The position numbers and the translations under genes were made by a program. This document shows positions 1 through 41,124 of a DNA stretch of 41,124 nt, one piece after another. Within the stretch, counting starts at the first letter, position 1. The number at the start of each line of letters is the position of its first letter. Where the stretch lies: the IMG/VR virus record IMGVR_UViG_2802429226_000008, positions 1 to 41,124 of that record; one strand, 5' to 3'. The notes under the pieces are model-generated. The model saw only the letters and a program-made list of their open reading frames with translations. It did no database searches and was not told the origin of the DNA. This DNA comes from a virus (lineage: Duplodnaviria > Heunggongvirae > Uroviricota > Caudoviricetes).

Positions 1-1254
1 ATGCTGGAACAAATGGGCATTGCTGCGAAGCAAGCCTCGTATAAATTAGCGCAACTCTCCAGCCGCGAAAAAAATCGCGTGCTGGAAAAGATCGCTGATG
101 AGCTGGAAGCACAGAGCGAAAGCATCCTCGATGCTAACGCCCAGGATGTTGCTGACGCGCGTGCCAATGGCCTTAGCGAAGCGATGCTTGACCGTCTGGC
201 GTTAACGCCCGCGCGCCTGAAAGGCATTGCCGACGATGTGCGGCAGGTGTGTAATCTTGCCGATCCGGTAGGGCAGGTGATTGATGGAGGTGTGCTGGAC
301 AGCGGCCTGCGTCTGGAGCGTCGCCGCGTGCCGCTGGGTGTTATAGGTGTAATTTATGAAGCGCGTCCGAACGTGACAGTTGATGTCGCTTCGCTGTGTC
401 TGAAAACTGGTAACGCGGTGATCCTGCGCGGCGGCAAAGAAACCTGTCGCACTAACGCTGCAACGGTAGCGGTGATTCAGGACGCCCTGAAATCCTGCGG
501 TTTACCGGCAGGCGCAGTGCAGGCGATTGATAATCCGGATCGCGCACTGGTGAGTGAAATGCTGCGCATGGATAAATACATCGACATGTTGATCCCGCGT
601 GGTGGTGCTGGTTTGCATAAGCTGTGCCGCGAGCAGTCGACAATTCCGGTGATCACTGGCGGCATTGGCGTCTGCCATATTTACGTTGATGAAAGTGCTG
701 ACATTTCTGCAGCCCTGAAAGTGATCGTCAACGCGAAAACCCAGCGTCCGAGTACCTGCAATACGGTAGAAACGTTGCTGGTGAATAAAAACATCGCTGA
801 TAACTTCCTGCCTGCGTTAAGCAAGCAAATGGCGGAAAGCGGCGTGACGTTACACGCCGATGCTGCGGCACTGGCGCAGTTGCAGGCAGGATCTGCGAAA
901 GTGGTGGCTGTTAAGGCGGAAGAGTATGACGATGAATTCCTGTCGTTAGATTTGAACGTCAAAATCGTCAGCGATCTTGACGACGCCATCGCCCATATTC
1001 GTGAACACGGGACGCAACACTCCGATGCGATCCTGACGCGTGATATGCGCAATGCCCAGCGTTTTGTCAATGAAGTGGACTCCTCTGCTGTTTACGTTAA
1101 CGCGTCTACACGTTTCACCGACGGCGGCCAGTTTGGTCTTGGCGCGGAAGTGGCGGTAAGCACGCAAAAACTCCACGCACGCGGACCAATGGGGCTGGAA
1201 GCGCTGACCACCTACAAGTGGATCGGTATTGGTGATTACACCGTTCGTGCGTAA
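1..1254 (+). CDS. proA: gamma-glutamyl phosphate reductase (proline biosynthesis)
   Basis: 417-aa ORF starting at window position 1; protein matches my recollection of E. coli ProA along its length; proA is the known chromosomal neighbour of thrW. Confidence 0.93.
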
Positions 1255-1369
1255 ATAAAACCGGGTGATGCAAAAGTAGCCATTTGATTCACAAGGCCAT
1301 TGACGCATCGCCCGGTTAGTTTTAACCTTGTCCACCGTGATTCACGTTCGTGAACATGTCCTTTTCAGG

Positions 1370-1445
1370 GCCGATATAGCTCAGTTGGTAGAGCAGCGCA
1401 TTCGTAATGCGAAGGTCGTAGGTTCGACTCCTATTATCGGCACCA
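1370..1445 (+). tRNA. thrW: tRNA-Thr (anticodon CGU)
   Basis: 76-nt sequence GCCGATATAGCTCAGTTGGTAGAGC...GGTTCGACTCCTATTATCGGCACCA with anticodon loop cTTCGTAAt and 3' CCA; cloverleaf-compatible. Confidence 0.93.
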
Positions 1446-1459
1446 TTTAAATCAATAAG

Positions 1460-2623
1460 TTACACATCATTAGTACTTTCCTTATTTTTTGACTGGGACA
1501 AATTTGGGACCGATGGGTTCAGGATCGAGTCTATTTGCCGTGCGTGTTCGGTAAGGTGATTAGGTGCAAGGTGAGCATATCGACGAACCATTTCGATAGA
1601 CTCCCAGCCTCCCATTTCCTGTAACACTGACAACGGGACTCCGGCTTGAACCAGCCAACTTGCCCAGGTGTGTCTCAAGTCGTGAAATCTGAAATCATCA
1701 ATACCAGCCCGTCTCAGCGCCGCTTTCCAGGCTGTGTTTGCGTCATACCGCATCTTCCTTACTGTTGGCGCTTTCGTTCCGTCTGGTTTGGTACAGCTTT
1801 CCTTGTACACAAATACCCAACGGTGATGATTCCCGATTTGTTTTTTCAAAACGCGACATGCAGTATCATTCAGCGCAACGCCAATTGCGCGGTTTGATTT
1901 ACTCTCTTCCGGGTTTATCCATGCCACCCGGCGCTGCATGTCTATTTGTTGCCATTCAAGGTTGATGATGTTCGAGCGTCTTAAGCCTGTTGCCAGTGCA
2001 AATTCAACAACAGACTTTAATGGCTCCGGACATTCATCAATCAGCCTTTGTGCTTCATGGGGCTCCAGCCAGCGGATCCGTTTATTCTTTGGTTGAGGCA
2101 CTTTAATAATTGGTGCCTTATCCAGCATTTTCCATTCACGCTCTGCGGCTCTTAGTAGGGCCTTTATAAATGAAAGATGCGTAGCCTTCGTTGCAACGGA
2201 CGCTGGTTTTGGCGTGTATTCTGGAACAGGTTTCCCTTTTTTTCTGCATGCTTCTGCCCTGAGTCTCCAGTTTTCCTCATGACGCCGGTTCGTCATTTTC
2301 TGCATTGCTGAATAAATTTTTGATTCAGTAATGTCTCTTAGTTGCATTCCTGCGAAATGTTGAAGCCAGAATCCGATCCGGCTTTTGTCATCGTCCAGTG
2401 ATTTTTTATGTGCTTTCTCTTCAAGCCACCTGACACACGCTTCCTCGAACGTTATATCAGGTATTTCACCAAGTTTGCTGACCCGCCATGCTTCAGCCTT
2501 TAGCTTGTCATGGAGTTCTGTCGCCTGCCTTTTGTCCTTTGTTCCAAGAGACTGTTTAAATCTTTTACCGTTCGGCAATGTGAAACTGGCGTACCATATT
2601 TCACCTCTGCGGAAGAGTGACAT
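1460..2623 (-). CDS. int: phage integrase (tyrosine recombinase)
   Basis: 387 aa; C-terminal [10 protein letters not shown] and VRRYAHL tyrosine-recombinase motifs; ATG at 2623 with GAGGA SD; abuts tRNA. Confidence 0.93.
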
Positions 2624-2850: not shown

Positions 2851-3155
2851 TATTTCACCTCTTGCTGTGACATTGTTGAAAAATGGATACCAGCTCGTTG
2901 CTGCCAGACGATCCAACCGAGAGTCATATCCCATGCCATGTATTCGTTATTGCCGTTTTTTGCTCTCCGACGATCTACTAAGTCACCGAAACGCTTTTCC
3001 ATGAATAATTCATAAGCTTCGCGTTCATCTGGTTCTACTTCCAGAGATAGGAGTGCGATTTCATAAGCACGGCGCTCAATATCGTCTCGCACGTCAAGGC
3101 TGCTGATACGCTCTTTAATTTCTTTAATCAGTTCTTTGTCGGTAAAAGTGGTCAT
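2850..3155 (-). CDS. hypothetical phage early protein
   Basis: 101-aa ORF; TAATG stop/start overlap with downstream gene at 2848..2852. Confidence 0.55.
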   Translation of the reverse strand: MTTFTDKELIKEIKERISSLDVRDDIERRAYEIALLSLEVEPDEREAYELFMEKRFGDLVDRRRAKNGNNEYMAWDMTLGWIVWQQRAGIHFSTMSQQEVK

Positions 3156-3517
3156 TATGCTCCAGCCTCCGGTGCTTTTGGCATTACTGCCCAGTGAGTG
3201 ATATTGACGTTTTCAAGGTCCCCGACCTGAAATGTCCACTGCCATTCTCCGGTTTCTTTTTGTCCCCAGGTGTACCAGAGAGAACGCCAACCAATTAGCC
3301 AGCCTTCTCCGTTAGCATCGAATAACAAAACACTTTCATTTGCTGGTGGCAGTTCAGTTGACACTGGTATTACTTTGTTTTCCTGTGCTGCACATTTAGC
3401 TTCAAGCGCATCGAATTTACGCACCAGGTATTCAGCATCTGTTTCATTTACTTTAAGATCTCGCGGTACACATCTCCCACGAAGAAACCCTTCCATTTCG
3501 AAAACATTCATGCGCAT
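3155..3517 (-). CDS. hypothetical phage early protein
   Basis: 120-aa ORF; TAATG coupling at 3153..3157; ATGA overlap with upstream gene. Confidence 0.55.
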   Translation of the reverse strand: MRMNVFEMEGFLRGRCVPRDLKVNETDAEYLVRKFDALEAKCAAQENKVIPVSTELPPANESVLLFDANGEGWLIGWRSLWYTWGQKETGEWQWTFQVGDLENVNITHWAVMPKAPEAGA

Positions 3518-4044
3518 TTGCGTAACTCCGATAACTCGTTAAAGCGTTCCATAAACATCCCGTAGGCATGGCCCGGTGCCAGTGGAATCACGTTGAACAT
3601 CTCTGTTGCCGGGATACCTTCCAGTACAGGCCAGAAAGAGCCATCATCAAGCCCGAGATCGCGGCGTTCGGTTGCCAGCATGATGAGATCGGCATATTTC
3701 ACGGGCGTACTCATAACTGGGGGTAATCCGTATTTCTCACGGATTACGGAGTCTATTTTTTCTTCCATTTGTTTATAGTCAGGAAGAAGGCGTTTCAGTG
3801 GTGCGGGAATGTCCTGGCAATACGCTTCTGTTGCATCATGCATTAACGCTTCAAAAGCAAATTCCTGCGGCACCAGCTGGCTGCAAAGAACCGCATGTTG
3901 GGCGACGCTGTAGAAGTGCGAAAGATGACCGGCAAAGCGACAGATATTTGAAAGGGAAACCGCGATATCGTTAATATCGATGTCGTCTTTATTTATCCTG
4001 TCATAATAAAAATGCTTCCCGGAAAAAGTTTTAATAAATGACAT
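3508..4044 (-). CDS. HD-domain phosphohydrolase (YfdR-like 5'-deoxynucleotidase family)
   Basis: H..H...HD motif (FAGHLSHF...HAV...LMHDATEAY); ATG at 4044 with GGAG SD (track start 4071 is a GTG). Confidence 0.7.
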   Translation of the reverse strand: MSFIKTFSGKHFYYDRINKDDIDINDIAVSLSNICRFAGHLSHFYSVAQHAVLCSQLVPQEFAFEALMHDATEAYCQDIPAPLKRLLPDYKQMEEKIDSVIREKYGLPPVMSTPVKYADLIMLATERRDLGLDDGSFWPVLEGIPATEMFNVIPLAPGHAYGMFMERFNELSELRKCA

Positions 4045-4171
4045 TTTGTTCTCCACGTATATGCGCTGCACCGCGCTGAATTCTGGTAAAAAGAATCCCT
4101 CACCATCCGGCGATTATTGAGTAAATTACGTTTTCATAAATGCCCCCGCAGGGGCATTTGCAGTAATGAAA

Positions 4172-4996
4172 TCAGGCGGTGAAAGTACCAATAAAGGTTT
4201 CTACTTTGCTGTCCTTGAATTTCTCAACAAGCAGATCACGAAATTCGTTAGCCATTTCTTCCTGCACCGCCTCCAGCTGAATAATGCGCAGAACCAGTAC
4301 CGGACGATCGCCAGTGATAATGCTGAGGCGTAATTTAAACGGACGTTCTTTCAGACCTTCAAACGGAATGCATTTAAATTCAAATGCCACTGGCATAATG
4401 TCTTTGGTCTTCGCTTCGACAGACTCCATCAGGGAGCGTTTGCCGCTGAAGTCATTATCTTCAAAATCAGCGGTCTGGTTTGCTTCAATCGTGATTTTAC
4501 GGACCGCCGCAGCCGCTTTTGTTGCCTGAATGGTGTCACCATTAGCATCAAAGCCCACAAGGTAGTCGGCCCAGTCTTCAATCCATTCTGCCAGTGATTT
4601 CTGGGAGTTACGCTCGCCATTAACAGACAACAGAGCAGAGAACGGTGCTGTCTTTTTCAGTTTGAGAGTGGCGGTGTTATCTGCGTGACCTGGTTCATCA
4701 ATAGTACCCAGGTTAAGCACACTGACGGCACGCATATTATCAGCATCGATAAAGCAGCGGGTGCCTTCATCTGCAAGATCTTTAGAATAACGGGTAAAGT
4801 CATCGATGCTGGCAGTGGAAAGCGCACCACGGAAACGGAAGCGATTTAAATTAAATTTTTCCAGATCATGAATGCGGAAATTCTCAGGCAATGCCACAGC
4901 ATCGGCACCAATCTTACTGATAATTTCATTAACACCCTGAGCAGAAATAAGGGCATGGATTTGATTAATTGCGGTTGCGTCTAAGTTCTGAGACAT
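4172..4996 (-). CDS. DUF2303 / YfdQ-like prophage protein
   Basis: 274-aa ORF with GAGGA SD; resemblance to CPS-53 YfdQ family from memory. Confidence 0.65.
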
Positions 4997-5061
4997 AATA
5001 AGTCCTCACTATATAAAGATATTCAGTGATGAGATAAATAATCAGTTAATTAAGAACGATA

Positions 5062-5424
5062 TTAATGACCTGCTGCGCGGAGTTTTCCGTCAGGTTCACC
5101 GGCAAGAGTCAGTAATTGTCCCTGGTCTTCCTGCAGAATAGTCAGGCGACCACCGCGATTGACATACATCGGCGTTTCGGTGGTGTCTTCTTCGGAAATT
5201 TTCCCGCGGTTAGTCGGGCGAACATATGAGAGTTTGTGTTTGATTTTCACACGGTTCTCATCAAATGGTTCGATTTCCAGGTTGAGTGAGACCTTACCTT
5301 TGGTTTTCGTGTTCATCACACCGGAAGCGACTTCACTGAGAACTGCGCCGATTTTGGTTTCAAATACGCCGCCGTCCAGCTCCCCGATAAATGCCTGCAC
5401 ATCAGTACTGCGTTCGCTAGCCAT
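5062..5424 (-). CDS. hypothetical phage protein (120 aa)
   Basis: ATG at 5424 with GAGGAG SD; upstream in-frame extension of track ORF to 5742 has junk-like composition. Confidence 0.6.
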   Translation of the reverse strand: MASERSTDVQAFIGELDGGVFETKIGAVLSEVASGVMNTKTKGKVSLNLEIEPFDENRVKIKHKLSYVRPTNRGKISEEDTTETPMYVNRGGRLTILQEDQGQLLTLAGEPDGKLRAAGH

Positions 5425-5861
5425 TTTGCTGCTCCTCATCATATCGACCCTGCAAGGCCGATTAGTTTCTCCACAAAACAGAGAAGAACACCTGCGGTAG
5501 CAGCCGCCCGGATGGATTGGGTTATGAGCCCGTCGTCCGGTGATGCTCTTCTCTGTTTTGTAAAAAGGACGGTACCAGCCGGAAGCAAGGGTACAAACTG
5601 GTACCGCCAGGACTACACACAGCATAAAGTTGTGGTGCCGGGTGCCTCCCGGTGCCTGGCGAAGGTTGCACACCAGACGGGTGGGTATCCACAGAAGGTC
5701 GACTGTCAGCCTCAACCTTAACCCGCGTGCGCTGAGCCGCATTCACCACAACGCTAAGGATTCTCTTTGGTTGAAAATACTTAGCTGTTATGTGCCTGTC
5801 TTTTCACCACTTCAGGCTCGGTGGTATCCTTTTAAGCCCGTATACATAAAAGGAAAATCAA

Positions 5862-6107
5862 ATGACTTTTGATGAAAAAGAACTTGATAATGCAATTAAT
5901 AAAATCATCGTAACGTCGCTCTTTTCCTGTCTCAGCGACACTCAGCAGAAACAGTTCTACGAATCGGCTTTCAACATGATCGAGCGTTGTTGTTTCTGCG
6001 ATGCCGACGAGTTACCTGAAAAAATCAGGAAACAGTTGGCTGATGCTCTTCGAGTGCGACTTTCTGACCAATTTTCTGAAATGTGCTCTCCGAATTTGGA
6101 CAAATAG
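5862..6107 (+). CDS. hypothetical small protein
   Basis: 81-aa ORF, AAGGA SD 9 nt upstream; convergently overlaps 6025..6300. Confidence 0.45.
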   Translation: MTFDEKELDNAINKIIVTSLFSCLSDTQQKQFYESAFNMIERCCFCDADELPEKIRKQLADALRVRLSDQFSEMCSPNLDK

Positions 6108-6300
6108 AAAAAGGCCATTTCCATTCAGGGTCTGATGGAAATACTTCAGCCTGTTCCAAAGCACGGCGTAAAGAGAACACAACTCCAGCCATAATCTGAT
6201 GTTTCCCATTGGTCCAGCTATCGCCGCTCTGATCTACAGGGGCGGCTATGTCGTATGACCAAACGACTTCACAGTTATTGTTTAAAATCTGGACTTTCAT
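6025..6300 (-). CDS. hypothetical small protein, first gene of leftward early operon
   Basis: ATG at 6300 with AGGTG SD; lies downstream of PL-like promoter. Confidence 0.45.
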   Translation of the reverse strand: MKVQILNNNCEVVWSYDIAAPVDQSGDSWTNGKHQIMAGVVFSLRRALEQAEVFPSDPEWKWPFSICPNSESTFQKIGQKVALEEHQPTVS

Positions 6301-6426
6301 TTCATACACCTGCTTTAACATGAGTGCCTAGTGGCACAACATGACTCAACGAATCATCCTGGACTTCATATGCCCCAGGCGGCTACTTCGTGGGCGTCCT
6401 GCCTGTTCGTTGTTTCGCTTGGGTAC

Positions 6427-6454
6427 ATTATGTATCTCAAAGGTACATTGTCAA
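6427..6454 (-). promoter_or_regulatory. PL-like sigma70 promoter (-35 TTGACA, 16-nt spacer, -10 CATAAT) with overlapping GTACA-type palindromes
   Basis: minus-strand reading of 6427..6454; palindrome TACAT-N-ATGTA at 6424..6434. Confidence 0.5.
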
Positions 6455-6457
6455 GTA

Positions 6458-6480
6458 TAAAAAAACCTGCCGAAGCAGGT
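6458..6480 (-). terminator. rho-independent terminator downstream of cI
   Basis: minus strand ACCTGCTTCGGCAGGT hairpin followed by a 7-T run. Confidence 0.7.
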
Positions 6481-6493
6481 TCATAAACATTGA

Positions 6494-7168
6494 TTAGGCT
6501 TTGATTTTGTATCTTCTTGGTTTTCCTGAGAAAATCACTGTACCAATTATAGAGCAATTACCGTTGATCTTAATGTAAGGCTCAGGCCAGTTTGGGTTTA
6601 ACGCTTTGAGATAACGCTGTGTCCCATCTTCTATCAACCTTTTGAAGGTGGTTTCGCCTGTATCGTGCATCAATGCAATAACGTCGTCACCGTGGCAGGC
6701 AGGTACTTCAGGATCGACAAAAATCATGTCTCCCGGGCGGTACTCATCAATCATTGAATCACCTATCACCCGCAAGATATAAGTCATTTCCCCACAGGGT
6801 ACAGGGCAGGGATACGTTTCTGCTGTGCTCAAATCAACCTCAGAATATCCAACTTCTTTCCATGCTCCGGCCTGTACCCATGATATGACAGGGACTAATG
6901 TGATTTGTTTATTAGTGATTGAAACATCAGGTTTTTTTGTGATGTTCGTTGTCTGGTGTTCTTGATCGAGCCATCCGACAGGCAGGTCGAAACATTTTTC
7001 GATGTGTCGTGCCATGCTGTCACCGATATTTTTAGTAGCACCATCTCCCATAAACCTGCTGGTCTGGGTTGGCTCGCGATCAATCATAGTGGCAAAGGAA
7101 GAATTCCCGCCAACACCATCTCTCAGTTTTCTGGCGTTAGACCGCCGGATGTCATGGATTGTTTTCAT
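6494..7168 (-). CDS. cI: CI-type prophage repressor (HTH-XRE N-domain, S24 LexA-like peptidase C-domain)
   Basis: 224 aa; C-terminal VIGDSM serine motif; no SD before ATG (leaderless-like); divergent from cro. Confidence 0.88.
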   Translation of the reverse strand: MKTIHDIRRSNARKLRDGVGGNSSFATMIDREPTQTSRFMGDGATKNIGDSMARHIEKCFDLPVGWLDQEHQTTNITKKPDVSITNKQITLVPVISWVQAGAWKEVGYSEVDLSTAETYPCPVPCGEMTYILRVIGDSMIDEYRPGDMIFVDPEVPACHGDDVIALMHDTGETTFKRLIEDGTQRYLKALNPNWPEPYIKINGNCSIIGTVIFSGKPRRYKIKA

Positions 7169-35339: not shown

Positions 35340-36110
35340 ATGCATCGTATAGACACGAAAACCGCGCAGAAGGATAAGTTCGGCGCGGGTAAGAACGGTT
35401 TTACCCGTGGTAACCCCCAGACCGGCACGCCTGCCACCGATCTGGATGATGACTACTTTGACATGTTGCAGGAGGAGCTTTGCAGCGTTGTGGAGGCATC
35501 CGGTGCCAGCCTGGAGAAGGGGCGGCATGACCAGCTGCTTACCGCGCTTCGTGCGCTGCTGTTAAGCCGCAAGAATCCGTTTGGCGATATCAAATCGGAT
35601 GGCACGGTGAAAACAGCTCTCGAAAACCTTGGTTTGGGAGAAGGCTCTGCATTACCTGTTGGTGTCCCTGTTCCGTGGCCTTCAGCCACTCCGCCAACAG
35701 GCTGGCTGAAATGCAACGGAGCAGCTTTTTCTGCTGAAGAATACCCGGAACTGGCAAAGGCTTACCCGACAAATAAATTGCCAGATTTACGTGGTGAGTT
35801 TATTCGTGGCTGGGATGACGGGCGTGGTATTGATGCTGGACGTGCTTTATTGAGCCTTCAGGCTGGGATGCTGGAAAAACACCGCCATATTGTTGTTGCC
35901 AATGATGGTTACGACACAAAAGATGAATGGGAACTGGCTACGATTTTCAAAAAAACATACACACAAGGACGGGGACTTGATGCCACAAATACAGGAGGGA
36001 GTCTGATCCCATCACCGACACTTCATTCACGAGGGAGTATCGGTAATACTGGCGGGAGTGAGACCCGTCCACGAAATATTGCATTTAACTTTATCGTGAG
36101 GGCTGCATAA
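35340..36110 (+). CDS. tail fiber protein (constant N-part, variable C-part inside invertible segment)
   Basis: 256 aa; crossover site inside codons ~93-101 (LENLGLGE). Confidence 0.8.
35617..35644. repeat. left inversion crossover site (gix/cix-like)
   Basis: CTCTCGAAAACCTTGGTTTGGGAGAAGG; inverted copy at 37459..37486. Confidence 0.75.
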
Positions 36111-36712
36111 TGGATAACGCAGTATTAAATAGCGAGTTTATTGCCACGAAGGCGGGGAATATTACCGTCTATAACTACGATGGTGAAACTCGGGAATATA
36201 TTTCTGCATCAACTGAATATCTTGCAATGGGTGTCGGTATTCCAGCATATTCCTGTTTAGACGCTCCTGGTACATATAAGGCTGGTTATACAATTTGCCG
36301 TTCTGTAGATTTAAATTCATGGGAATATGTGCCAGACCATCGCGGTGAAATCGTCTATAACACCGAAACGGGAGACGCCAAAGAAATCACAGCTCCGGGT
36401 GATTATCCTGAAAATACAACCACTATCGCCCCGTTAACGCCATTCGATAAATGGGATGGTAAGAAATGGGTGACCGATACTGAGGCACAGCATAGCGCCG
36501 CAGTAGACGCGGCAGAAGTACAGCGTCAGTCACTGATTAATACTGCAATGGCTTCCATTAGTCTGATTCAACTTAAATTGCAGGCCGGGCGGAAGCTGAT
36601 GCAGGCAGAGACCACCCGACTTAACACTGTGCTGGATTACATTGACGCGGTGACGGCAACAGATACCAGCACAGCGCCGGATGTCATCTGGCCTGAACTG
36701 CCGGAGGCGTAG
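36110..36712 (+). CDS. tail fiber assembly protein
   Basis: 200 aa; TAATG coupling to tail fiber; conserved C-terminus shared with the inverted alternative. Confidence 0.78.
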   Translation: MDNAVLNSEFIATKAGNITVYNYDGETREYISASTEYLAMGVGIPAYSCLDAPGTYKAGYTICRSVDLNSWEYVPDHRGEIVYNTETGDAKEITAPGDYPENTTTIAPLTPFDKWDGKKWVTDTEAQHSAAVDAAEVQRQSLINTAMASISLIQLKLQAGRKLMQAETTRLNTVLDYIDAVTATDTSTAPDVIWPELPEA

Positions 36713-37121
36713 GCCATTCAATATCTGGCACACTGGAGGTATCAACCAGCTCCAGTGCGTCCAGGTAATCCAGCCATAAATTATATTGCGCCAGTTCCTC
36801 GTCTTTCAGACGACCAATAGCGGCTTTACCGGGCCATTGTTTACTGTTCATGTATTCGTTGGCCTGATTAAGCAATAATTGCCTTTCTGATTCTGCCTGT
36901 TGAATAAGTTCTTCATGTGATGGTGGAGGTATTAGTGCCCATGTGGGTAATCCATTTTCTCCTGCAACACGAATTTTGCCATCTGGGGGCGTATTTATTG
37001 CAAATTCATTATAAACATCATCACTGACAGCCAGAGCATCATCTGGCCATGAATTTGCATTAATGTAATCATCCTTAAGTGCAGGATTCACAAAAATGTT
37101 TAAAGATGGACTATAAAACAT
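36684..37121 (-). CDS. alternative tail fiber assembly protein (inverted orientation)
   Basis: 145 aa; C-terminus (...VDTSSVPDIEWPTPP) parallels the plus-strand assembly protein C-terminus (...TDTSTAPDVIWPELP). Confidence 0.72.
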   Translation of the reverse strand: MFYSPSLNIFVNPALKDDYINANSWPDDALAVSDDVYNEFAINTPPDGKIRVAGENGLPTWALIPPPSHEELIQQAESERQLLLNQANEYMNSKQWPGKAAIGRLKDEELAQYNLWLDYLDALELVDTSSVPDIEWPTPPAVQAR

Positions 37122-37122
37122 A

Positions 37123-37512
37123 TTACACCCCTATAGCGATATAACGACCTAATACAGCGTTTGCAGCAGTCGCTATGCTTGAAAAACCGCGGAACTGATT
37201 TGATGTAATTGCAGAAGCCGACAGGATTCCTGCGCCTGAAGGTGTATGCCCCACATGACTAACTATCATTCCATAACATGCTGACGGAAAGGCAAAAGGA
37301 AAATCGTTAAGATATCCGGCATCTTCACCACCAGACCCACCAAATCTCGCCTGCCCCCACTGAATAATCAGTGTTCTCCGGGAACCTGAAATAATTAACG
37401 GAATCGTTACATACCCATTCAGACCAATGACACCCGATGCAGTGCCAGCCAGAGATAATTCTCCCAAACCAACGTTTATGAAAATGCAGAAATAACAAGC
37501 AAATGGCATCAT
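37123..37512 (-). CDS. alternative tail-fiber C-terminal cassette (silent until inversion fuses it to the constant N-part)
   Basis: ORF reads ...NVGLGE at crossover site, matching NLGLGE of expressed fiber. Confidence 0.65.
   Translation of the reverse strand: MMPFACYFCIFINVGLGELSLAGTASGVIGLNGYVTIPLIISGSRRTLIIQWGQARFGGSGGEDAGYLNDFPFAFPSACYGMIVSHVGHTPSGAGILSASAITSNQFRGFSSIATAANAVLGRYIAIGV
37459..37486. repeat. right inversion crossover site (gix/cix-like)
   Basis: TTCTCCCAAACCAACGTTTATGAAAATG; shares TTGGTTTGGGAGAA with the left site in inverted orientation. Confidence 0.75.
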
Positions 37513-37538: not shown

Positions 37539-38093
37539 ATGCTTATTGGCTATGTACGTGTGTCAACAAATGACCAGAACACCGATCTACAACGTAATGC
37601 GTTGAACTGTGTAGGATGTGAACTGATTTTTGAAGACAAGATAAGCGGTACGAAGTCCGAAAGGCCCGGACTGAAAAAACTGCTCAGGACATTATCGGCA
37701 GGTGACACACTGGTTGTCTGGAAGCTGGATCGGCTGGGGCGTAGTATGCGGCATCTGGTCATTCTAGTTGAGGAGTTGCGCGAACGTGGCGTTAATTTTC
37801 GCAGCCTGACGGATGCTATTGATACCAGCACACCGATGGGGCGTTTTTTCTTTCATGTGATGGGTGCCTTGGCTGAAATGGAACGAGAACTGATTGTTGA
37901 ACGAACAAAAGCTGGACTGGAAGCTGCTCGCGCGCAGGGACGAATTGGTGGACGTCGTCCCAAACTTACACCAGAACAATGGGCGCAGGCCGGGCGATTA
38001 ATTGCATCAGGCGTTCCTCGCCAAAAGGTGGCGATCATCTATGATGTTGGTATATCGACACTGTATAAGAAGTTTCCGGTTGGAGATAAATGA
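37539..38093 (+). CDS. serine DNA invertase (Hin/Gin/Pin/Cin family)
   Basis: 184 aa; N-terminal GYVRVSTNDQ catalytic-Ser motif; C-terminal HTH; adjacent to crossover site. Confidence 0.9.
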   Translation: MLIGYVRVSTNDQNTDLQRNALNCVGCELIFEDKISGTKSERPGLKKLLRTLSAGDTLVVWKLDRLGRSMRHLVILVEELRERGVNFRSLTDAIDTSTPMGRFFFHVMGALAEMERELIVERTKAGLEAARAQGRIGGRRPKLTPEQWAQAGRLIASGVPRQKVAIIYDVGISTLYKKFPVGDK

Positions 38094-38094
38094 A

Positions 38095-38129
38095 ACCGTA
38101 GCACGTCGTATGCAAGAACGTGCTACGGT
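38095..38129 (+). terminator. stem-loop just after invertase stop (possible terminator)
   Basis: 10-bp stem CCGTAGCACG/CGTGCTACGG; no clear U-tract. Confidence 0.35.
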
Positions 38130-38313
38130 TAGCTGGTGAAATGTCGATAGTGCGAGTGTTGAATAATTTTTAGCCGTTATTGATTTTACGTATTTTTGTA
38201 TGAGATGATTTGCATCTCCTGTCACCGACCATCTATGACTATACGTCACCATTTCTAGGGCTGCTATGTGCCAAGAGCGGCAATTGACAGAGAGCAGCCC
38301 TATCTCAGTGGCT

Positions 38314-41124
38314 TTATTTTTTTAGAGATTGCATTCGTTCATTGAATATGTCCAATGTGTCTTGAAATTCAACAAAGCCTCTATCCTTTATAAGGCTTTT
38401 AATTAAGTTAGGAAAATCACTTTCTACACCAGCTGTAATGAAATCTAACTCGCCTAATTTATTCGGGATGTTTTCAGAAACAAATTTGTTAATAACCTCA
38501 AGAAATTGATCAGGCATGGCACATCCGCTTGCGACTAAATGCAAACATTCCATAATATCGCTTACTGTTGCCAGTGGTAGGTTTAAAATATTACTGTTAA
38601 TAAACTTGTCTATAATGTCAACGACCTCAGGAGAGCCAATCCTTTTGATGTTCAATAATAAACTCTTAGTGATGGATCTTTTCCACTTATCATCAAATAA
38701 TTGTATTTTTGTTAACGCTAATGTTAATAGTTCAGTGTTTTTGTATTCGTAATTATGATTCTCTGATAATATGTAAATGTTTCGTAAGATATTGGAGTTA
38801 ATTACATGCTGGTCATAACCATTTAACTCTCCTGTATTGATTTTTATAAGTATTACATCCAGGATTTTTAACATATCATCATGGGATTTTTGATACAAAA
38901 ACTCATTCACAGCTAGAAGATTATGTATGTTTTCATAAATATTTATGTTATTAGTTCTGCCTTCTAACAAAGGAAGCAAACCATTTATTATTTTCTTTAA
39001 CTGGTTTGAACTCCACGGAACACATCCTAATATAATCAATAAATTATTGGTCCATCGATCTATTGAAGTGGTATGAATAAAATTTTTATTTTTCAACCTA
39101 ATCAGGTTGCATATGTTTTCGAGAGAGTTGAGTAAATATTTCTTAATATGGTGAACTTCTCTTTTGTCAAGTTTGCTGGTGCTGATTATTATTTTGTCTT
39201 TTATTACCTTACTTAAAAATTTTTTGAGTTTTTCTGTCTCGCAGTATTTTATTAACATAAATAGATCGATTCTATTAACATAGAATATCTCTTCGCATAG
39301 ATAGTGTTCGAGGCTACTAAGAATATTAAATTCGAAAAATTGTTTAACCTCTTTATATTCTTCAATTAAAATTTCGTTGCCTAAAATGAAATACACATAA
39401 GGGTACAGTTTCGCTCTTGTTTTAAATTCATCATTGGAAAATGCTATTCCACCACTCTTTCTTATTTGTGAGTACCCTAAATTCTTCTTCGATTCAACGT
39501 CAAATCGATAGTAAGCTTTGTATATTTCATTAAATTCAAGCATCTTTACTAATTCTTGTAGCTCACTTTGCACCCCCCGTGGAAAATCAATTATTTTACT
39601 TTTAAACTCAAATGGAGTATGGCTTTCCATTATTGATTTACAATCTTCATCAATGTCCTTACCGTTACAGTGTAAATCCGACTTCAACATCCTGTAAGCA
39701 TAATCAAAATTAGACATGTGAATGGTGGCGAGAATATAGTTTCTCTCATTAAGATGAAGCTTTACTTTCGAAATAAGAATATCGAGAAGTTTGCCATATT
39801 CCTTGTTAATAAGAAGTATTTCAGCATTATCCTTTGAATAAGCGAAAGAAATCTTATTGTATAGCTCAGACTCTAATTCTGAAGAACTAATCACCTCATA
39901 CAGTTTCGAGTCATAACTAACTGTATTTATAAATGCCTTTTCCAAAATAGATGAGAATGTCTTTTTTAAGTGAGTATTTTTACTCAAAATGTCATTAAGG
40001 TATATGCTATTTATTTTCCTGCTATACTCGTCATAATCAGTCGTCAAAATATTATTGTGGGAGGTTAGTTTAACCCCAGACTTATCATAATCAATGGTAC
40101 TATTAGTTAATTTTTTACTGATCTGCTCAGGGAGCAATACTTTGTATTGTGTTAATGCTTTTAGTTTGCTATCAACATATTTATTTATTTTTTTTGTTAC
40201 AATACATTGAATATCATTCTTCAATTTATTTTTATCAAAATCAGACATTCTCAGGTCATCTTCTATTTTTTTTACCTTTGACTCAGTATAGATTAGGGTC
40301 CTCTTTATAAACTCATCTTGGTTTTTAACAAGCTTGAAATCACTGAAAAATTTTGAATAAAGATCATGATAGCTAATGTCAGTATTCATCGGTGTCAACA
40401 AGGATATCCCATGATTTCTTAAGTAAAGAGCCTGGGCTGCATCATGATTTTTCTGGAGCAAATATTTTCTTGGTGTTGCTTTTGATATAGTTGTAACCCA
40501 TGAAACAATCTGTTTTAAATCATAATCACTATAAGAGTATCCTAAAAACACAACAGTGTTTGTTGAGAATATTCCTTTTATAAAATTTTCGATAAGTGGA
40601 AAATTTTGGCTGTACTGTAAGTAATCATCCTCTTTAAAAACAAAATTATTCTGTCGAAAATCCCCATGCATCTTTATAATTTTCTTGTCCAAATGACTTT
40701 GTGCCAGGTCCACGTCAGAACTAACTAAATCATAAGCCAATCCTATGTCTTGTGCAGTTTTTTCAAGCAAACTATCCCAGTTGGTTGTAATTATATAGTG
40801 GGGGTTTAATTCAAATAGCATCTTATGAAAAAGACTTGGTTTCAAATCTCTAATTATTGATTTGACTTTTTTAACATAAGAGTTTTGTCCGTATTGAAGA
40901 AAGTAAAGTTGGGCTATTTTTAAATAATCATTTTCTTCAGACAATCCTAAGTCGTCTTTTAGCTCATTTATTAACTCCCTCCAGGTTGGTATTTTTATTA
41001 ATTCCGTTTCGCTGAATTTAGAAAAACCAGCACCAATAAAAAGAACTAACTTATTATCTTGACTGGCATTCAATATTTCGTTCAAGTCATATTCAGAAAA
41101 AGAAAGTGGATTTAAATTTATCAT
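38314..41124 (-). CDS. SIR2-domain protein (936 aa), candidate NAD+-depleting antiphage defense protein (DSR/ThsA-like N-domain, unknown C-domain)
   Basis: N-terminal GAGFS (31-35), TTNWD (N115), KMHGD (H153), FLGYSYSD motifs; AT-rich codon usage; ATG exactly at window edge. Confidence 0.78.
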   Translation of the reverse strand: MINLNPLSFSEYDLNEILNASQDNKLVLFIGAGFSKFSETELIKIPTWRELINELKDDLGLSEENDYLKIAQLYFLQYGQNSYVKKVKSIIRDLKPSLFHKMLFELNPHYIITTNWDSLLEKTAQDIGLAYDLVSSDVDLAQSHLDKKIIKMHGDFRQNNFVFKEDDYLQYSQNFPLIENFIKGIFSTNTVVFLGYSYSDYDLKQIVSWVTTISKATPRKYLLQKNHDAAQALYLRNHGISLLTPMNTDISYHDLYSKFFSDFKLVKNQDEFIKRTLIYTESKVKKIEDDLRMSDFDKNKLKNDIQCIVTKKINKYVDSKLKALTQYKVLLPEQISKKLTNSTIDYDKSGVKLTSHNNILTTDYDEYSRKINSIYLNDILSKNTHLKKTFSSILEKAFINTVSYDSKLYEVISSSELESELYNKISFAYSKDNAEILLINKEYGKLLDILISKVKLHLNERNYILATIHMSNFDYAYRMLKSDLHCNGKDIDEDCKSIMESHTPFEFKSKIIDFPRGVQSELQELVKMLEFNEIYKAYYRFDVESKKNLGYSQIRKSGGIAFSNDEFKTRAKLYPYVYFILGNEILIEEYKEVKQFFEFNILSSLEHYLCEEIFYVNRIDLFMLIKYCETEKLKKFLSKVIKDKIIISTSKLDKREVHHIKKYLLNSLENICNLIRLKNKNFIHTTSIDRWTNNLLIILGCVPWSSNQLKKIINGLLPLLEGRTNNINIYENIHNLLAVNEFLYQKSHDDMLKILDVILIKINTGELNGYDQHVINSNILRNIYILSENHNYEYKNTELLTLALTKIQLFDDKWKRSITKSLLLNIKRIGSPEVVDIIDKFINSNILNLPLATVSDIMECLHLVASGCAMPDQFLEVINKFVSENIPNKLGELDFITAGVESDFPNLIKSLIKDRGFVEFQDTLDIFNERMQSLKK

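Follow-up and report, generated by a model that had tools for sequence, protein, structure and literature searches.

The window, by which we mean the whole 41,124-nucleotide stretch of DNA analysed here, has proA and tRNA-Thr(cgt) at its start and an integrase gene after them. It carries a prophage of ~38 kb or more, with genes for the integrase, a CI-like repressor, terminase, portal, major head, sheath, tape measure and baseplate proteins, and this prophage looks complete as judged from 10 proteins only. The following features make up its tail-fibre region and the invertase gene beside it:

35340..36110, plus strand: tail-fibre gene expressed in the present orientation, 256 aa (ORF; Pfam Collar, E = 1.9e-15; PHROG tail fibre families)
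35617..35642, no strand: pixL, left crossover site, CTCTCGAAAACC-TT-GGTTTGGGAGAA, with the core TT at 35629-35630, within the fibre gene at codons LENLGLGE
36110..36712, plus strand: tail-fibre assembly gene that goes with the Collar tip, with a TfaE-like product of 200 aa (Pfam Caudo_TAP, E = 2.8e-31)
36684..37121, minus strand: alternative assembly gene, 145 aa, TfaP-like (Pfam Caudo_TAP, E = 7.1e-35)
37123..37470, minus strand: silent alternative fibre tip with a gp53-like C domain (Pfam Gp53-like_C, E = 1.2e-12); the ORF continues to 37512
37459..37484, no strand: pixR, right crossover site, TTCTCCCAAACC-AA-CGTTTATGAAAA, with the core AA at 37471-37472
37539..38093, plus strand: pin, serine DNA invertase, 184 aa (Pfam Resolvase, E = 1.2e-51, and HTH_7)
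37557..37628 (gene nt 19-90), no strand: putative enhancer in the 5' end of pin, from alignment with the P1 cin enhancer, annotated at cin nt 19-90

The constant N-terminal part of the fibre runs from 35340 to ~35630 (about 97 aa) and is followed by the variable Collar tip at 35631-36110. Over its first 105 aa the protein shares 97% identity with K-12 StfP, and the Collar tip matches K-12 StfE at 60% identity; the 200-aa assembly protein that goes with this tip shares 85.5% identity with K-12 TfaE. On the minus strand, identities are lower, at 50% between the 145-aa assembly protein and K-12 TfaP and 30% between the gp53-like tip and K-12 StfP. The two tips carry unrelated Pfam domains (Collar and Gp53-like_C), and the two assembly genes are convergent, with an overlap of 29 nt. 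A first-pass annotation of this DNA had described the same gene layout, and its coordinates and domains were all recovered by ORF and Pfam analysis. It had also called the alternative fibre part startless, which holds only in the sense that this part comes without the N-terminal constant part of the fibre, because the minus-strand ORF (37123-37512, 129 aa) has an ATG at 37512 and a second one at 37509, 13 codons outside the segment, and is thus mechanically open from its own start. In relatives, RefSeq annotates this ORF as a CDS.

The sites pixL and pixR, 26 bp each, lie in inverted orientation and match the sites of the K-12 e14 P segment at 26/26 positions. Each is an imperfect dyad in which two 12-bp half-sites flank a 2-bp core (left half-sites CTCTCGAAAACC / TTCTCCCAAACC, right half-sites TTCTCCCAAACC / TTTTCATAAACG), and the cores, TT in pixL and AA in pixR on the plus strand, are the same dinucleotide after orientation correction. 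Both inverted repeats quoted in the first-pass annotation were found in place, the segment of about 1.84 kb that it had proposed corresponds to a core-to-core distance of 1842 bp, and the dyad-symmetric core on which its reading depended is present at both sites, with matching cores. Its description of the sites as gix/cix-like can be sharpened, as they are identical to the K-12 e14 sites and not merely gix- or cix-like. Further crossover sites, as in a multi-inversion system like Min of p15B, were not found in the window.

Could such a repeat have arisen by chance? An inverted-repeat search returned arms at 35624-35642 and 37459-37477 (19 nt, 95% complementary, 1816 nt between them), and the exact 14-mer that they share, TTCTCCCAAACCAA, occurs nowhere else in the 41-kb window, even with 2 mismatches allowed. 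Repeat length alone is only modestly significant, because 400 shuffles of the 5.5-kb region gave an exact separated inverted repeat of at least 14 nt in 3.3% of cases, a count restricted to separated arms, without local palindromes; this is what a chance origin has in its favour. The decisive point against chance is the 26/26 identity of both sites with those of K-12 e14, and the sites moreover fall at the boundary between the constant and variable parts of the fibre, with an invertase gene adjoining.

The product of this gene, which RefSeq names pinE, is 94.6% identical to K-12 PinE and 76.6% identical to Mu Gin, and it matches the Gin structure 3uj3 over its full length (E = 3.5e-93). An identical protein is encoded on 645 public contigs. 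Sequence and Gin alignment show the catalytic residues R7, S9, D64, R65 and R68 and, in helix E, the motif FFF-H-M. The adjacent Hin/Gin/Pin-type invertase claimed in the first-pass annotation is therefore there at full length, with the catalytic Ser9 kept and with both the Resolvase and the HTH_7 domains. A Shine-Dalgarno-like AGGGAG stands 7 nt upstream of the gene, and a promoter scan found no match to the sigma-70 consensus upstream of pin. Residues K46, K47, R50, Q150, R153 and L154 of Pin are presumably the counterparts of the Fis/enhancer-contact residues of Hin, a correspondence that the Gin alignment supports. In Hin, these residues (K47, R48, K51, Q151, R154 and L155) contact Fis and the enhancer and are conserved only among Fis/enhancer-dependent invertases (PMC3798978).

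The 5' part of the invertase gene, where the first-pass annotation had suggested looking for a Fis-binding enhancer, contains two matches to the degenerate Fis consensus, at 37561-37575 (TGTCAACAAATGACC) and 37609-37623 (GTGTAGGATGTGAAC), whose centres are separated by 48 bp. This degenerate form of the consensus, K...M, is said to come from Hübner and Arber in 1989. Both 15-mers match KNNYRNNWNNYRNNM at 7/7 positions, and the matches occupy the same positions in all five genes compared, which include pin, pinE, gin and cin. A pair of Fis-consensus matches 48 bp apart, in any position, was seen in only 45 of 5000 shuffles; with the strict pattern G-N13-C, the distal site was found in pin but the 48-bp pair was not. 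The centre of the proximal match lies ~96 bp from the pixR core, and in Salmonella hixL is ~100 bp from the proximal Fis site (PMC3798978). Conservation of the enhancer sites is not independent of protein constraint, because the catalytic motif VRVSTNDQ is encoded in the same stretch, and we call this a putative enhancer.

Inverting the segment in silico yields an in-frame fibre of 212 aa, made of the constant part and the gp53-like tip; the 145-aa assembly gene then begins 1 nt past the stop of this fibre. The predicted junctions for the two orientations (35630 / 37471) are GGGAGAA followed by GGCTCTGC and GGGAGAA followed by TTATCTCTGG. The exact 212-aa fusion predicted in this way is encoded on 72 public contigs, and the native 256-aa fibre on 12. 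Among complete E. coli genomes (coverage of at least 80%), 50 carry the segment in the orientation of the window and 49 in the orientation obtained in silico, and relatives with the same cassettes occur in both states. Over 6184 bp, the only difference between the O157:H7 strains 7409 and 2-6-2 is that the DNA between the sites is exactly reverse-complemented. Likewise, the near-isogenic CP057024 and CP057022, which have the same cassette pair as the window, differ by an exact inversion of the segment, and their recombinant junction is the predicted one. In one other pair of relatives (L004 and L005), a SNP adjoins the core, and BLAST aligns the two as one collinear piece.

These natural inversions also bear on whether general homologous recombination could have produced the two orientations in relatives. 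Homologies of 14-19 bp are too short for efficient RecA-dependent recombination, and the independent inversions all break within the same 14-15 nt, inside the predicted sites. We therefore consider a chance repeat, or inversion by homologous recombination, to be effectively refuted. The first-pass annotation had assigned the locus to invertible segments of the host-range-switch type (Mu G, P1 C, e14 P) and had noted that the window shows one orientation. With both orientations in natural isolates and breakpoints in the sites, the assignment stands, and the orientation shown is opposite to that of the MG1655 reference, being the StfP2/StfE2 state in the nomenclature of PMC12529663. In clonal MG1655 cultures, inversion of the e14 P segment has been detected by sequencing and PCR (PMC4272514), and the e14 P segment is inverted by PinE, PinQ and PinR (PMC12529663).

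With a probability of roughly 90%, we read the locus as a P segment of e14 type with Pin, carried by a contractile-tailed E. coli prophage that looks complete, and inversion by Pin and Fis as the event that swaps the fibre tips. The mechanism is established for Hin and Gin, and we infer it for this copy. Pin dimers would bind the two 26-bp sites, which on supercoiled DNA would come together in a synapse with the enhancer, bound by Fis within the first 90 nt of pin; the Pin tetramer would then cleave both sites at the 2-bp core via Ser9, and rotation of one tetramer half by 180 degrees, followed by religation of the ends, would leave the 1842-bp segment inverted. Because the left site lies within the fibre gene, past codon 101, the constant part, presumably the one that attaches to the baseplate, could join either tip, giving a fibre of 256 aa with the Collar tip, as in the window, or one of 212 aa with the gp53-like tip. 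Either way, the assembly gene that belongs to the tip would come next in the same transcript, and the virions released by a population of lysogens would be expected to be of two kinds, differing in their fibre tip. Analogy with Mu and P1 suggests that the two tips may correspond to two receptor specificities.

From the sequence features, flipping of the segment in this particular strain is probable. It is very unlikely that the switch is a frozen relic that either does not invert in this strain or inverts without consequence since the prophage makes no virions. The lack of a promoter consensus match for pin would fit such a relic, as would K-12 e14, a defective remnant that still carries the segment, but even this defective copy inverts. 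In the window, moreover, both cassettes and both assembly genes are open, the structural genes are full length, and the sites, the invertase and the enhancer positions are intact and identical or near-identical to those of copies that demonstrably flip.

The locus, a P segment of the long-known e14 type in intact form, is real but ordinary. Both the e14 P segment and Pin were already known in the 1980s, and the inversion has shown up in sequencing reads as well as in hundreds of genomes. For annotation, this means that what appears at such loci as a fibre gene and as a 'gp53-like domain-containing protein' is one gene in two states. For strain comparison, a 1.8-kb inversion at this place is phase variation and not misassembly. 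In the literature, we found no host-range experiment on any e14-type fibre; the present copy could serve as a test of host-range change by e14-type tips, and is suited to it because the prophage looks complete.

The e14 P segment with PinE, for which PMC4272514 cites Plasterk and van de Putte (1985) and Mehta et al. (2004), is the system closest in detail, with identical 26-bp sites, a Pin of 94.6% identity, a constant fibre part of 97% identity, a segment of ~1.8 kb and the same gene order (ymfQ, fibre, tfa, tfa', fibre tip', pin). It has also been treated by Kirigo et al. 2025 (PMC12529663). The window differs from K-12 e14 in its orientation, which is opposite to that of MG1655, in its diverged tips (60% for Collar, 30% for gp53-like) and TfaP-like protein (50%), in a prophage that looks complete and lies at proA/tRNA-Thr rather than icd, and in its cargo after pin, a SIR2-family gene instead of mcrA. 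The 417-aa ORF at 1-1254 had been considered as icd, as in e14-type integration, but BLAST identified it as proA, with tRNA-Thr after it. Integration in icd with an e14 integrase, which would define e14 itself, was not found in the window; because proA/tRNA-Thr and the integrase stand at its start, we regard the P segment and pin module as e14-type but the prophage as a different mosaic relative.

The G segment of Mu with Gin has the same arrangement of a constant part S, gix, Sv-U, U'-Sv', gix and gin with the enhancer at its 5' end. The invertases are 76.6% identical, the half-site pattern TTNTCNNAAACC is common to both, and the baseplate genes upstream in the window are Mu-like (gp45-gp48). 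Unlike the present segment, however, the G segment is ~3 kb long with far longer fibre parts, its core is TC/GA instead of TT/AA, and the tips are unrelated. The P1 C segment likewise switches a fibre tip by means of a Fis/enhancer-dependent invertase, Cin, with Fis matches at gene nt 30 and 78 within the annotated enhancer, but its 4.2-kb segment has cin on the other side, where cixL overlaps the 3' end of cin. The cassette pair of the window, with its 145-aa assembly protein unchanged, is also found as an invertible fibre cassette in E. coli P2-like prophages (L015 and L018), where it has equivalent crossover sites and is seen in either orientation. These prophages, by contrast, combine it with a long P2 H-type constant fibre part (465 or 509 aa), an invertase of 188 aa and a P2-type baseplate. 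Some genomes, CP057673.1 among them, have an e14-like as well as a P2-like copy.

The gene that follows pin in the window encodes a SIR2-family, defence-like protein.

In K-12, inversion of the P segment creates StfE2, which blocks adsorption of T2 (PMC12529663). A switch that mainly serves the host, in which the minus-strand ORF at 37123-37512 would, if expressed in the lysogen, block the adsorption of other phages, is accordingly suggested by the StfE2 configuration of the window; the 17 N-terminal residues of this ORF, whose codons lie outside the segment, are identical to K-12 StfE at 16/17 positions, AGGA stands 3 nt ahead of its second ATG (37509), and the SIR2-family gene next to pin would suit such a role. 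The gp53-like part shares only 30% identity with K-12 StfP, however, so the reported receptor-masking activity does not transfer to it, and the promoter scan for this ORF gave nothing of note, only a weak 9/12 promoter-like match on the minus strand upstream, inside pin. Because the prophage looks complete, a function in the virion is the simpler reading, and we consider a mainly host-serving switch unlikely. The host-serving and virion-tip readings are nevertheless compatible.

A more specific proposal, to which we give a small chance, is that in the lysogen the orientation seen turns on the 129-aa ORF, with its start outside the segment and its hydrophobic N-terminus, as a surface-masking exclusion factor. 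The ORF and the SIR2-family gene would then make up a phase-variable corner of the prophage devoted to defence, and inversion in trans by the invertase of P2-like prophages could couple the switches. If true, this would extend the K-12 StfE2 effect to a quite different tip (30% identity).

The two inverted repeats that the first-pass annotation had proposed, from sequence alone, as crossover sites of a Mu G / P1 C / e14 P-type switch were both found where it had placed them. A repeat search returned arms at 35624-35642 and 37459-37477 (19 nt, 95% complementary, 1816 nt apart) with an exact 14-mer in common, TTCTCCCAAACCAA, which occurs only twice window-wide with 2 mismatches tolerated. A separated exact inverted repeat of at least 14 nt arose in 3.3% of 400 shuffles of the 5.5-kb region, and repeat length by itself is only modestly significant; it is the content and position of the repeat that make it meaningful. 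Both arms are portions of 26-bp imperfect dyads, pixL and pixR, and the dyad-symmetric core is indeed present: the central dinucleotides, TT and AA, are equal after orientation correction, with a core-to-core distance of 1842 bp. pixL lies in the fibre gene at codons 94-101 (LENLGLGE), and the minus-strand ORF at 37123-37512 reads ...NVGLGE at pixR. Both sites of the e14 element of E. coli K-12 MG1655 match the window sites 26/26, and a half-site pattern is common to these and to Mu gixL and gixR.

Features of the invertible tail-fibre segment (P segment) and its invertase gene
35340-36110, plus strand: tail fibre, 256 aa, Collar domain (ORF, Pfam, PHROG)
35617-35642: left crossover site (pixL), CTCTCGAAAACC-TT-GGTTTGGGAGAA
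36110-36712, plus strand: assembly protein, 200 aa, Caudo_TAP (domain search)
36684-37121, minus strand: assembly protein, 145 aa, Caudo_TAP (domain search)
37123-37512, minus strand: ORF with Gp53-like_C domain (domain search)
37459-37484: right crossover site (pixR), TTCTCCCAAACC-AA-CGTTTATGAAAA
37539-38093, plus strand: invertase (pin), 184 aa, Resolvase + HTH_7 (domain search)

The assignment of pin to the Hin/Gin/Pin type was borne out by a full-length alignment to the Gin crystal structure sequence (E = 3.5e-93), and identity amounts to 94.6% with K-12 PinE and 76.6% with Mu Gin. Pin retains Ser9, R7, D64, R65 and R68 as well as the FFF-H-M motif of helix E, and it has the basic helix-B residues K46, K47 and R50, plus Q150, R153 and L154. 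The correspondence of these residues to Hin is taken from the Gin alignment and the Hin sequence. Conservation of their Hin equivalents is limited to Fis/enhancer-dependent invertases (PMC3798978). The length, domains, functional residues and public copies of pin gave no sign of decay, and 645 public contigs encode exactly this 184-aa protein. That the segment is a frozen relic, no longer inverting in this strain, is very improbable, and nothing in the sequence hints at it.

Fis binding was considered in the 5' part of pin by aligning the first 150 nt of the window pin, K-12 pinE, O157 pin, Mu gin and P1 cin; an enhancer of Cin inversion is annotated in the P1 GenBank record at cin nt 19-90. 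Matches (7/7) to a Fis consensus, KNNYRNNWNNYRNNM, were present in 5/5 genes with centres at gene nt 30 and nt 78, 48 bp apart and within the cin-annotated interval. The candidate enhancer is represented in the window by matches at 37561-37575 and 37609-37623, to a consensus that is degenerate, and it stays putative; any 48-bp pair of matches arose in 45/5000 shuffles of the first 215 nt. The centre of the proximal predicted site lies ~96 bp from the pixR core, and in Salmonella the proximal Fis site is ~100 bp from hixL (PMC3798978). The first predicted site overlaps codons of the catalytic motif VRVSTNDQ, so its conservation is not independent of protein constraint. At the sequence level, the full complement of a Fis/enhancer-dependent invertase system is present, with a putative enhancer. 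By analogy with Hin and Gin, Pin dimers on both sites and the Fis-bound enhancer would synapse on supercoiled DNA (PMC4513852, PMC3798978), a Pin tetramer would form with Ser9 cutting at the 2-bp core, and one tetramer half would rotate by 180 degrees before the ends are religated.

When the segment is inverted in silico at its cores, the gp53-like tip becomes fused in frame to the constant part and a 212-aa fibre results; the 145-aa assembly gene then begins 1 nt past its stop. When 5426 complete E. coli genomes were searched with the 3.3-kb locus (coverage at least 80%), 50 carried the window orientation and 49 the inverted version, with single collinear alignments across both junctions among the matches. 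O157:H7 7409 and 2-6-2 have the same 6184-bp locus, the only difference being that the stretch from site to site is exactly reverse-complemented (0 mismatches); the crossover is limited to TTGGTTTGGGAGAAG, predicted core included. CP057024 and CP057022, with assembly sizes 2 bp apart and the window's cassette pair in each, are exact reverse complements over 1816 nt; one of them contains the junction of GGGAGAA with TTATCTCTGGCT as predicted beforehand. Exact protein matches on public contigs numbered 72 for the 212-aa fusion and 12 for the native 256-aa fibre, and both states were seen among relatives 2-5% diverged from the window. Four independent comparisons show that P-segment inversion occurs in nature. 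The frame is kept on inversion, both states are natural and the breakpoints fall inside the sites. A chance repeat or RecA-driven inversion is ruled out, since the sites are identical to those of e14 and the breakpoints are precise and recurrent.

The switch interpretation of the first-pass annotation is correct and the observation real, although already known: the window P segment is one more copy of a system described since the 1980s, and RefSeq relatives already carry a pinE annotation. Sequencing and PCR have revealed e14-segment inversion within clonal MG1655-derived cultures (PMC4272514). The segment is inverted by each of PinE, PinQ and PinR, and of 562 E. coli genomes 33% were reported to show inversions (PMC12529663).

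Compared with K-12 e14, the sites, invertase and constant fibre part are conserved, whereas the Collar tip (60% identical), the gp53-like tip (30%) and the TfaP-like assembly protein (50%) have diverged, a mosaic pattern usual for receptor-binding modules. The domains of the two tips are unrelated, and by analogy with Mu and P1 the tips would differ in receptor specificity. The P segment of the MG1655 reference is oriented opposite to that of the window, which has the 'StfP2/StfE2' state in the naming of PMC12529663. The ORF at 37123-37512 has its ATG 13 codons beyond the segment edge and a second ATG preceded at 3 nt by AGGA. Its 5' part external to the segment (37472-37512, minus strand) reads MMPFACYFCIFINVGLGE, a hydrophobic N-terminus identical at 16/17 positions to that of the K-12 fibre protein StfE, and its layout is that of StfE2, the fusion made by P-segment inversion. 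It is possible, though unlikely, that this ORF acts like StfE2 in host defence by blocking adsorption, as the StfE2 configuration is reported to do for T2 in K-12 (PMC12529663); however, the gp53-like tip is strongly unlike that of K-12, and a promoter scan found no good promoter for the ORF. Such a role would add to the tail-fibre switch, not replace it.

The convergent assembly genes share 29 nt where their 3' ends meet (36684-36712), as do tfaP and tfaE of K-12 e14. An 18-nt inverted repeat on both sides of this overlap (36631-36648 / 36757-36774, 89% complementary) reflects a conserved C-terminal motif (LDYIDA / LDYLDA) that both strands encode. The 90%-identity cluster containing the 212-aa fibre has the 145-aa assembly protein as representative and assembly proteins as the majority of members, which looks like a clustering artefact of the protein collection, not biology.

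At the start of the window (1-2623) are proA (1-1254), tRNA-Thr(cgt) (1370-1445) and a gene on the minus strand for a 387-aa integrase, an order that places the prophage at thrW and not at icd, the site of e14. Its genes include those for a CI-like repressor, the large terminase, the portal and major head proteins, the tail sheath, the tape measure and the Mu-like baseplate proteins gp45 to gp48, and from this gene content it looks complete, whereas K-12 e14 is a 15-kb remnant. proA and the integrase have only ~95.7% identity to their best full-length matches in complete E. coli genomes. Near relatives of the tail module adjoin prfC/osmY, so the tail and P-segment module travels with varied integration modules.

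Two hairpins 3' of pin are probably terminators, with loop lengths outside the terminator-scan criteria: one (38094-38130) begins at the pin stop codon and has perfect 13-nt arms and an 11-nt loop; the other (38256-38320) has an imperfect 19-nt stem, then a T-run, adjoining the stop of a convergent SIR2 gene. This gene, directly after pin (38314-41124, minus strand), encodes a 936-aa protein with SIR2_2 at aa 111-242 and a ThsA-like SIR2 match confined to aa 15-230; nothing in Pfam or PADLOC matched its C-terminal ~700 aa. Several porcine ETEC genomes have this gene at 99.9% identity, and it is probably prophage cargo that provides single-gene anti-phage defence. Comparison of the window (38094-41124) with three fetched loci (L006, 6347-7180; L001, 9155-13008; L004, 7453-8961) shows that cargo varies in the slot from pin to the prophage end. 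The occupant is the SIR2 gene in the window and mcrA in K-12 e14. BCE049 has a LEM-3-like GIY-YIG nuclease with a Dcm methylase and a type II restriction enzyme behind it, O157:H7 has the same GIY-YIG gene (where the fetched locus stops), and E600003 has an LPO_1073/Vpar_1526 family protein with DinI.

The window's cassette pair also lies within the long fibre gene of P2-like prophages (CP057673.1 and CP057978.1; positions 3000-6600 of each fetched locus), with an identical 145-aa assembly protein, equivalent crossover sites and both orientations represented (509-aa Collar fibre vs 465-aa gp53-like fibre). CP057673.1 has two copies, one e14-like and accompanied by the SIR2 gene as it is in the window, the other P2-like; each copy has a separate invertase, and cross-inversion in trans between the two is plausible.
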